From NCBI RefSeq assembly GCF_057098645.1, contig NZ_CM169472.1: DNA of 64,000 bases; one strand, written 5' to 3'. A program made the position numbers. Positions 63,001 through 64,000 of the stretch are shown in pieces (positions within the stretch are counted from its first letter, which is position 1; every line of letters starts with the position of its first letter).

Positions 63001-64000
63001 GAAAAACGTGTATTTTTAGTCATCCTGTTTACCTCTTTCTCAGGGAGTTTAGTCTCCAGGATTCCCGGGGCGGTTCACATAACCAATTGTATTTGTTGAA
63101 AAATAAATAGATACAACTTGCTAAACAACGCAATCCAGATCTCCCTCAAATCTCTTTATTTATCCTGTCGAATTCCTACAACAAAATAAAACACCATAAG
63201 AATCAATACGATATTTGAAAACCAAGAGAATTTATCATTTTGCTATTGCCATTAATTTATCATTCCGATAAAGTTCACCCATCAGCAGGACGCACTACTC
63301 ACCAGGGCGGTGAATATACAACGATTCGAATATGAATCTACGGCGCTGACAAAGCGCAATAACCAAAGTGAACTTTGGGGTGTGGTGAAGGGTTCATGGA
63401 CGGGAATATGTCGCACGTAAAGCGGCGAGGCCTGTAGGACTATTGCCGAATTGAAGTAGGCCGAAACAGGTCGAAATGGGTCTCCCACCTACCACACCAC
63501 CAAAGTTCATCAGGAGGTCTATATGACACGCAGAACTCAGTTCAAAGGCAATTCACATTCTCGTCGTCGTGAGCGTTTAAAGGCAAAGGCATTAGCTAAC
63601 GGCGTGCTGGCCCGCGAAGAAGCAATAAGTTCAGAAGTATTACACCGCCCTACTCTAAGCAGAGCGCAGATTCAGGCTAAAGGTACTCACGAAACGCCTG
63701 AGCGCATAGAAGACGCTAAGCCAATTAAGTTCATGGCACAGGACGTGATCTGGCAGCAGAAAGAATACAGACGCAATCTGGAGCGAGCGGCCATTGTGTA
63801 CGCGAATGAGTTTGGACATAAGCAACCAGAAACTGGTGTATGTCTTCCAAACGTAGCCATTTACGCTGCAGGCTACCGGAAATCCAAACAACTGACAGCA
63901 AGATAACTTGTGTTGGTCGCCAGAAAATGAAATTAGGCAGCAAACCACTGTATGAGAGGTGAGATATGGAAGCATTAGTAGTAGAGCGAAGCGAGGATGG

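Follow-up and report, generated by a model that had tools for sequence, protein, structure and literature searches.

In a 64,000-nucleotide stretch of DNA from NCBI RefSeq assembly GCF_057098645.1 (contig NZ_CM169472.1; one strand, 5′ to 3′; "the window" below means this whole stretch), the leader of the N gene of a lambdoid prophage folds into a long-range hairpin. With a probability of roughly three in four, we take this element, in a lambdoid prophage of the 933W/H-19B/HK97 type, to be the N-leader processing ("rIII") hairpin and a homolog of the one that is sensitive to RNase III in the pL leader of phage lambda. Its basal helix exists, goes well beyond what chance would give, is homologous to that of lambda and is maintained by compensatory substitutions; cleavage by RNase III, the positions of the cuts and an effect on translation of N are what we infer from the homology to lambda. 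Judged from its sequence, the hairpin is an ordinary though well-conserved regulatory element of a known kind, with a counterpart in lambda. The leftward strand of lambda corresponds here to the plus strand at the end of the window (the region of positions 63,001–64,000), on which the hairpin and the gene behind it consist of the following parts (nt, nucleotides):

63368 to 63387, plus strand: 5′ arm of the basal helix, reading GUGAACUUUGG (lower part) and GGUGUGGUG (upper part, GU-rich and boxC-like); defined by repeats, folds and covariation
63388 to 63489, plus strand: interior of the hairpin, a type A module of 102 nt, branched, with four short helices predicted
63490 to 63510, plus strand: 3′ arm, reading UACCACACC, the bulged A63499 and then CCAAAGUUCAU; defined by repeats, folds and covariation
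63512 to 63517, plus strand: Shine-Dalgarno (SD) sequence of N, AGGAGG, 2 nt 3′ of the helix; read from the sequence
63523 to 63906, plus strand: N antiterminator gene of the 933W/H-19B/HK97 type, 127 amino acids; from the list of open reading frames (ORFs) and Pfam

A repeat search returned the arms as two abutting pairs, 63374–63386 with 63491–63503 (13 nt, 85%) and 63369–63378 with 63500–63509 (10 nt, 100%), which make up one helix of 11 base pairs (63368–63378 with 63500–63510), the bulged A63499 and a further 8–9 base pairs (63379–63386/7 with 63490/1–63498). When 63362–63522 is folded with RNAfold, 63368–63386 are paired with 63491–63510 in the minimum free energy (MFE) structure as well as in the centroid, at −61.6 kcal/mol; dinucleotide shuffles average −45.8 ± 4 kcal/mol (z = −3.94), and none of 200 was as stable. 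The same basal helix, 63368–63510, is contained in the fold of the whole leader. Counted as the longest helix with one bulge, it has 20 pairs; in 300 shuffles of 63281–63522 that preserved the dinucleotides, such helices averaged 11.35 pairs and none exceeded 19. The initial annotation, made from the sequence alone, had described an inverted repeat in the N leader and proposed RNA folding as a check on it; repeat search, MFE and centroid folds and the shuffles all bear it out, and the leader does fold into a stable hairpin. The string given for the right arm, CACCACACCACCAAAGTTC, does not occur literally (63490–63509 reads TACCACACCACCAAAGTTCA); the arms had been given as 63369–63387 and 63491–63509, and the pairing reaches one to two bases further out, to 63368 and 63510. 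About two turns of double-stranded RNA close a large stem-loop, and from the end of the right arm it is 2 nt to the SD sequence and 13 nt to the AUG at 63523. A second stretch complementary to the left arm (63368–63376) is the 9-nt sequence AAAGTTCAC at 63270–63278, which overlaps the −10 element of pL and has a direct copy, AAAGTTCA, at 63502–63509; as it lies upstream of the inferred +1, and hence outside the RNA, the match is taken as chance.

In the pL leader the hairpin stands between the boxB of nutL and the ribosome-binding site of N. It had been thought that it might include nutL, which is not so: nutL maps entirely 5′ of it, so that boxB, boxA and the spacer all fall outside the interval, boxB lies upstream at a distance of 10 nt, and only the GU-rich, boxC-like stretch of the left arm overlaps the structure. 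The elements in question are:

63291 to 63357, plus strand: nutL, 5′ of the hairpin, mapped from the annotation of GQ499361 (933W-like) through a 98.8% match
63300 to 63312: small hairpin inside nutL
63323 to 63338: spacer of nutL with perfect dyad symmetry, GATTCgaatatGAATC, flanked by the boxA region and boxB
63343 to 63357: boxB stem-loop GCGCUGACAAAGCGC (= GCGCTGACAAAGCGC), predicted in the fold of the leader

The nutL of P22 carries an identical boxB sequence. The loop of the dyad differs among relatives (GAATAT, AAATAT, AAACAT, AAGCAA, AGTGAT), and the dyad matches the dyad-symmetry spacer described for H-19B nut sites.

The likeness to the RNase III-processed hairpin of lambda, which the initial annotation had offered as an analogy, turned out to be closer than that: arm sequence, bulged A and compensatory changes speak for homology. 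In lambda, the base of the hairpin is GGCUUUGGGGUGUGUG ... CACACACC-A-CCAAAGCU, where 81–88 pair with 196–203 and 89–96 with 187–194, and where the pairs G88–C196 and G89–C194 flank the bulged A195. The arms in the window match this base (CUUUGGGGUGUG...CACACC-A-CCAAAG) and have the bulged A at the equal position; set side by side, the arms read CUUUGGGGUGUGUG/CACACACC-A-CCAAAG in lambda and CUUUGGGGUGUGGUG/ACCACACC-A-CCAAAG in the window. Moreover, phage Louie and several E. coli prophages combine the boxA, boxB and N of lambda with exactly the hairpin type of the window, which makes the two hairpins interchangeable homologs and not mere analogs.

For a wider comparison, leaders were collected upstream of N genes of the 933W, lambda and P22 types in IMG/VR (80 loci each) and supplemented with those of phi80, PA2-type phages, HK97, SPN9CC, BP-4795, P22 and SI8. 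A basal helix is found at the equivalent place in 79/79 933W-N, about 72/73 lambda-N and 68/71 P22-N loci (our own tally, for loci with enough upstream DNA); the stable structure that the initial annotation had expected of homologous leaders, and whose absence it had named as an argument against its proposal, is present in nearly all of them. Covariation was assessed on a set of 26 distinct arm pairs, drawn from leaders of the lambda, 933W/HK97, P22 and phi80 types, in which the arms were cut at set distances from the cores TTTGG and CCAAA without optimising the pairing; three rows in which an indel shifts the register were excluded, L014 (1-nt deletion) and L183 and L207 (tRNA-like; L numbers denote loci of the comparison). 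A standard pair is formed in 92.9% of cells, as against 36–41% when the partners are slid by 1–3 columns, 13 of the 20 pairs show changes on both sides, and the covariation score of 0.555 (0.179 in shuffles) was reached by none of 500 shuffles. Pairing in the relatives is thus kept up by compensatory change. The upper helix, in particular, has been swapped wholesale among lineages and yet always pairs: it occurs as GGUGUGGUG/UACCACACC, GAUGCGAUG/CAUCGCAUC, GGUGAAUGC/GUAUUCACC, ACUGGCG/CGCCAGU, GAAAGCG/CGCUUUC, GAUUGGAUG/CAUCCAAUC and GUUGCAGGU/AUCUGCAAC. The core UUUGG/R-CCAAAG is nearly invariant in the 26 rows; a common variant of the lambda-N loci, type G (about 27 loci), has CUUUGAGUAGCGCG/CGCGUUACUCAAAG and is without the bulge, the GG/CC and the CCA, and across all variants only CUUUG.../...CAAAG is universal.

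In this comparison the basal helix stays constant and interiors are exchanged as modules, with at least eight families freely combined with different types of N and nut. At least four interiors occur among loci with identical nutL and N. Over all loci, nine interior clusters and type G were obtained, which reduce to eight families since clusters 3 and 8 are one, as are cluster 1 and type G:

Type A (this window): 100–102 nt; 933W-N and lambda-N loci, as well as phi80 and PA2-type phages
Type C: 198 nt; both 933W-N and lambda-N loci (e.g., L015, L103)
Type B/F: 61 nt; BP-4795 and P22-N loci (e.g., L020/L184)
Type D/G: 40–43 nt; SPN9CC and lambda-N loci (e.g., L007/L092)
Type E: 128 nt; lambda-N loci (e.g., L105)
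Lambda type: 86–96 nt; lambda-N loci
P22/SI8 type: 78–82 nt; P22-N loci and SI8
tRNA-like type: 80 nt; 15 P22-N loci

The type A interior is 91–100% identical among the window, phi80, PA2-type phages and lambda-N phages (Louie), the flanks of which differ and are not alignable, and it is present in 497 of 5426 complete E. coli genomes (about 9%), never annotated. RNAalifold on 16 type A variants gives 49 pairs, 6 of them with compensatory changes (for example, GGCCUGU/ACAGGUC to GGCCCGA/UCGGGUC); as the copies are 97% identical, this covariation is thin evidence for an internal structure. Searches of Rfam returned chance matches only for 63000–64000 at E ≤ 10 (mir-2010, bxd_1) and none at E ≤ 1 for seven representative loci spanning the other interior types. 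In the tRNA-like family, ARAGORN calls an 82-nt tRNA-Pro(GGG) (L183 592–673 and 14 other P22-type loci) with a good acceptor, D and T arms of canonical form and an anticodon arm that is poor; its acceptor stem and ACCA take the place of the upper basal helix. Rfam gives no tRNA match for it even at E ≤ 10, and the element is therefore termed tRNA-like only; in the hairpin of the window and in eight other representative loci ARAGORN finds no tRNA or tmRNA. The same element is present in Salmonella phage P6 (OP265889.1, 13204–13329), and no record annotates such tRNA-like interiors.

Several loci depart from the usual arrangement. Two of the VT2phi_272/PA2 type (L003, 1654–1766, and L254) have a phi80-like leader and a type A hairpin and then no N; there, a strong promoter-like site, TTGACT-17-TATATT, stands about 60 nt ahead of a hairpin that resembles a terminator and has a T-run, an arrangement that may encode a small RNA or may belong to an antitermination system independent of N. 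In L069 the 250 nt before position 701 hold, in tandem, a type C hairpin, an SD sequence, the first ~13 nt of N, the tail of a boxB, a type A hairpin and a complete N; this looks like the product of unequal recombination between two hairpin types. A lambda-type N locus (L148) has an extra small ORF (ATGAATAACGAAGCG...) between the right arm and N, and in a degraded prophage of E. coli KSC64 (L255) nutL and the left arm were lost by deletion or rearrangement, so that only half of the type A interior is left, together with the right arm and an N gene of the lambda type.

According to the established model for lambda, RNase III cuts the leader hairpin, rnc− cells express several-fold (about 4-fold) less N, and the complex of N and Nus factors at NUTL represses translation of N as long as RNase III has not separated NUTL from the ribosome site. 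A corresponding course of events can be proposed for the prophage in the window. In the pL transcript the GU-rich 5′ arm, 10 nt past boxB, would pair with the 3′ arm, the end of which is 2 nt short of the SD sequence of N; this would loop out about 140 nt and bring the N/Nus complex at nutL beside the ribosome-binding site of N. With the helix formed, boxB and the SD sequence are separated by about 12 unpaired nucleotides and the helix end. The helix further covers the 30S landing site from −20 to −13, which may moderately lower initiation, and would present about two turns of double-stranded RNA to RNase III. If the enzyme made staggered cuts at the bulged A, nutL would be separated from the N cistron and the ribosome site set free, whereby synthesis of N would come to depend on the RNase III activity of the cell. 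Following lambda, cleavage by RNase III probably takes place near two positions:

63378 to 63379, plus strand: predicted cut in the 5′ arm, UUUGG|GG, placed by homology to the lambda cut at +88/+89
63501 to 63502, plus strand: predicted cut in the 3′ arm, ACC|AAAG, placed by homology to the lambda cut at +197/+198

The latter cut would give an N mRNA beginning 21 nt before the AUG. Placed on the lambda fold, the lambda cuts lie on either side of the bulged A and would leave the expected 2-nt 3′ overhang, a geometry that fits the near-invariance of the surrounding core. According to the partition function, opening 63503–63536 takes 16.6 kcal/mol in the full leader vs 8.0 kcal/mol after the predicted cut; by this energetic proxy, the hairpin adds about 8.6 kcal/mol to the opening of the region from −20 to +13 and nothing for the SD–AUG core. 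The probability that the SD sequence is unpaired is about equal with and without the hairpin.

A number of points weigh against a processing hairpin that controls N. The SD–AUG core (63511–63530) opens at 5.2 kcal/mol with the hairpin and at 5.8 kcal/mol without it; SD and AUG are thus not sequestered, and a direct effect on translation may be modest. PA2-type phages keep the type A hairpin with no N gene after it, which argues for some role, or a persistence, that is independent of the N ribosome site. The ends of P22B, a small RNA from the homologous leader of P22, differ from the RNase III cuts predicted there. Finally, a literature search returned no experimental data for this phage type, and nothing relevant on RNase III in the N leaders of Shiga toxin (Stx) phages.

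With interiors so freely exchanged, the basal helix might also be mainly a processing clamp that releases what it encloses as a stable small RNA, much as the leader-trailer helix of rrn operons releases pre-16S rRNA; this we hold to be doubtful, though it can coexist with the processing of the N leader. It would account for the occurrence of the same nutL and N with different interiors and of the same interior with different nutL and N, type A being 91–100% identical across phages with unalignable flanks, for the retention of the hairpin without N in PA2-type phages, and for a tRNA-like interior family; P22B, a 96-nt RNA of the P22 homolog, is found in abundance in vesicles and in infected cells (PMC13397905), and the boxC of rrn operons is part of the 5′ strand of the leader-trailer helix (PMC10250234), a target of RNase III (PMC8632103). 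Yet no interior matches any Rfam family (scans at E ≤ 10 for the window and E ≤ 1 for the others) or has a known target or partner, the ends of P22B do not fit a clean excision, and the type A copies, 97% identical and with little internal covariation, may owe their conservation merely to recent exchange. The modular interiors thus leave room for an RNA cargo, of which there is a modest chance, without establishing one. Somewhat less likely again is the more general idea that the lambdoid pL-leader hairpin is a conserved cassette holder beside the nut site with its load of Nus factors and N, comparable to boxC in rrn operons: an almost invariant clamp (CUUUG.../...CAAAG) in which endonucleolytic cuts would release exchangeable structured RNAs of 40–200 nt, with functions of their own, early in infection, regulation of N translation being one use among several. 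The tRNA-like interiors also invite the thought that the upper helix and the A-CCA at 63499–63502 imitate the acceptor, discriminator and CCA of a tRNA, and that it is RNase P that cuts at 63378|63379, which is improbable. The 3′ arm does read ...CACACC-A-CCA-AAG, R-CCA follows the upper helix in 26/26 aligned arm pairs, and the 15 P22-type loci with the ARAGORN tRNA-Pro(GGG) have acceptor stem and ACCA exactly at this position; E. coli RNase P cuts hairpin-like phage RNAs including the phi80-induced M3 RNA (PMC5499578, PMC11143913), and phi80 has the hairpin type of this window (M11919 = L001, 872–1010). In the window, however, the CCA is paired to the UUUGG of the leader and not free, N(−1) would be a G, and neither ARAGORN nor Rfam detects anything tRNA-like in the hairpin, which does not combine the acceptor-like helix, unpaired RCCA and D- and T-arms of a tRNA-like RNase P substrate; type G, in about 27 lambda-N loci, is without bulge and CCA, and the tRNA-Pro element itself has no Rfam tRNA match at E ≤ 10. 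The lambda cut at this site is attributed to RNase III.

Two further explanations dispense with a processed RNA. The arms could be features of the DNA only, serving as recombination linkers or as terminal inverted repeats of a small mobile element without any function in RNA. Mosaic breakpoints do fall in or near the arms (for example, the BP-4795 match ends at 63382, and those of phi80, PA2 and Louie span 63373–63505), and one locus (L069) carries the hairpin and the N start in tandem duplication. But the arms change in sequence while complementarity is kept, and these compensatory changes, found in 13 pairs, point to selection on pairing and not on DNA identity; besides, the invariant core of 5–7 nt is too short for efficient homologous exchange, and the interior of a miniature inverted-repeat transposable element (MITE) would travel with its arms into varied flanks, the opposite of what is seen. 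All this makes a pure DNA feature very improbable. A MITE or other insertion element was rejected, as arms and flanks are constant, interiors vary and no duplication flanks the arms. The least credible proposal is an intrinsic terminator or attenuator that would limit pL transcription before N. In its favour, the leader hairpin is very stable, but no U-tract follows the stem, where the sequence continues AAAGUUCAUCAGGAGG, and N, the next gene downstream, has to be transcribed before there can be any antitermination; since the terminator scan is empty at 63368–63520 and there is no T-run 3′ of the stem, this candidate was discarded.

Along the plus strand, the order of the lambdoid prophage is cI, three small genes, an IS3-family element, pL, leader and N. 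Apart from the parts described above, further features of the window are:

49186 to 49261, minus strand: tRNA-Met (CAT) gene found by ARAGORN, unconnected with the leader hairpin
59475 to 60179: cI repressor gene, LexA/S24-type, identified by Pfam Peptidase_S24
61768 to 63077: IS3-family insertion sequence (IS), 1310 bp long when measured from outer end to outer end of its terminal inverted repeats of 25 nt
63246 to 63274, plus strand: pL-like promoter, TTGCCA, 17-nt spacer and TAAAGT, from a consensus scan
About 63281: inferred start of the pL transcript, the A of ATCAGCAGGACGCAC, by homology to lambda

The sequence at the start of the leader, ATCAGCAGGACGCAC at 63281, is identical to the +1 region of lambda pL. 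The N ORF matches Pfam N_peptide (PF25694, E = 2e-15), and the gene is called N in phage records with 83–100% identical DNA (HK97, AU5Stx1 and others). The IS3-family element, with an HTH_Tnp_1 ORF and an rve-domain ORF as its transposase pair, both on the minus strand, lies between the end of the cI operon and oL/pL, about 170 bp 5′ of the −35 hexamer of pL; the exact junction of IS and leader had no match covering at least 80% of the query among the complete E. coli genomes in the collection.

N is the first gene expressed on induction of a Shiga-toxin prophage. If the proposed processing holds, a leader that ties synthesis of N to host RNase III, and hence to growth state, would be one input to the lytic commitment of toxin phages. 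The element amounts to about 140 nt that are unannotated or mis-annotated in public records, some of which call spurious small coding sequences (CDSs) or over-long N genes across the hairpin: in BP-4795, ORF19 (L008, 1146–1595) is an "N" called 23 codons too long, with its start inside the hairpin, and Louie CDS0041 (L002, 1503–1637) is a 44-residue "hypothetical protein" wholly within it; the ORF19 extension and CDS0041 are probably annotation artefacts. Two small ORFs across the hairpin in the window (63310–63420, plus strand; 63394–63510, minus strand) were rejected as coding, not being conserved across interior types. The modular interiors, for their part, amount to a natural experiment on whether leader hairpins carry functional small RNAs.

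Among known systems, the rIII hairpin of lambda is closest. Both hairpins are located in the pL leader, after the boxB of nutL and before the ribosome site of N, both are about 120–140 nt in size, their basal helices are nearly identical, including the bulged A 5′ of CCAAAG, and natural chimeras pair the nutL and N of lambda with the hairpin of the window. They differ in the interior, which is unrelated in sequence (type A in the window, lambda type in lambda), and in the gap between helix and SD sequence, which is 2 nt in the window vs about 7 nt in lambda; nutL and N of the window are of the 933W/H-19B specificity class, and cleavage and regulation are, for this phage, predictions from lambda. 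The lambda site is reportedly treated by Steege et al. 1987, Kameyama et al. 1991 and Wilson et al. 1997, 2002 and 2004; to go by their titles, those of Steege and Wilson are said to deal with RNase III processing of the lambda N leader and translational repression of N.

Hairpin-like RNAs that are excised from longer phage transcripts are also known as RNase P substrates (M3 of phi80, C4 of P1 and P7, CI of P4); RNase P recognises the substrate's 3′ end, and phi80 shares the hairpin type of the window, but in the latter the CCA is paired, and it is absent from type G. By analogy, the leader-trailer helix of rrn operons may be compared as well. There, too, a site that binds Nus precedes a 5′ strand that is GU-rich and boxC-like, which reads UGUGUGGG in rrn (PMC10250234) and GGGGUGUGGUG in the window, and the boxC strand pairs over a long range in the leader-trailer helix (PMC10250234), which is an RNase III target (PMC8632103); however, this helix encloses a functional rRNA of 1.5 kb and that of the N leader 40–200 nt. 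A further case is P22B, a small non-coding RNA of 96 nt that accumulates in cells infected with phage P22 (PMC13397905). It lies within the homologous hairpin in the leader of P22 gene 24 (N), where it takes up the 3′ two-thirds (L090, 451–546), extends across the right arm and stops 16 nt short of the AUG. The interior there belongs to another family, and the ends of P22B are off the predicted RNase III cuts; its accumulation shows that a fragment of such a hairpin builds up in vivo.

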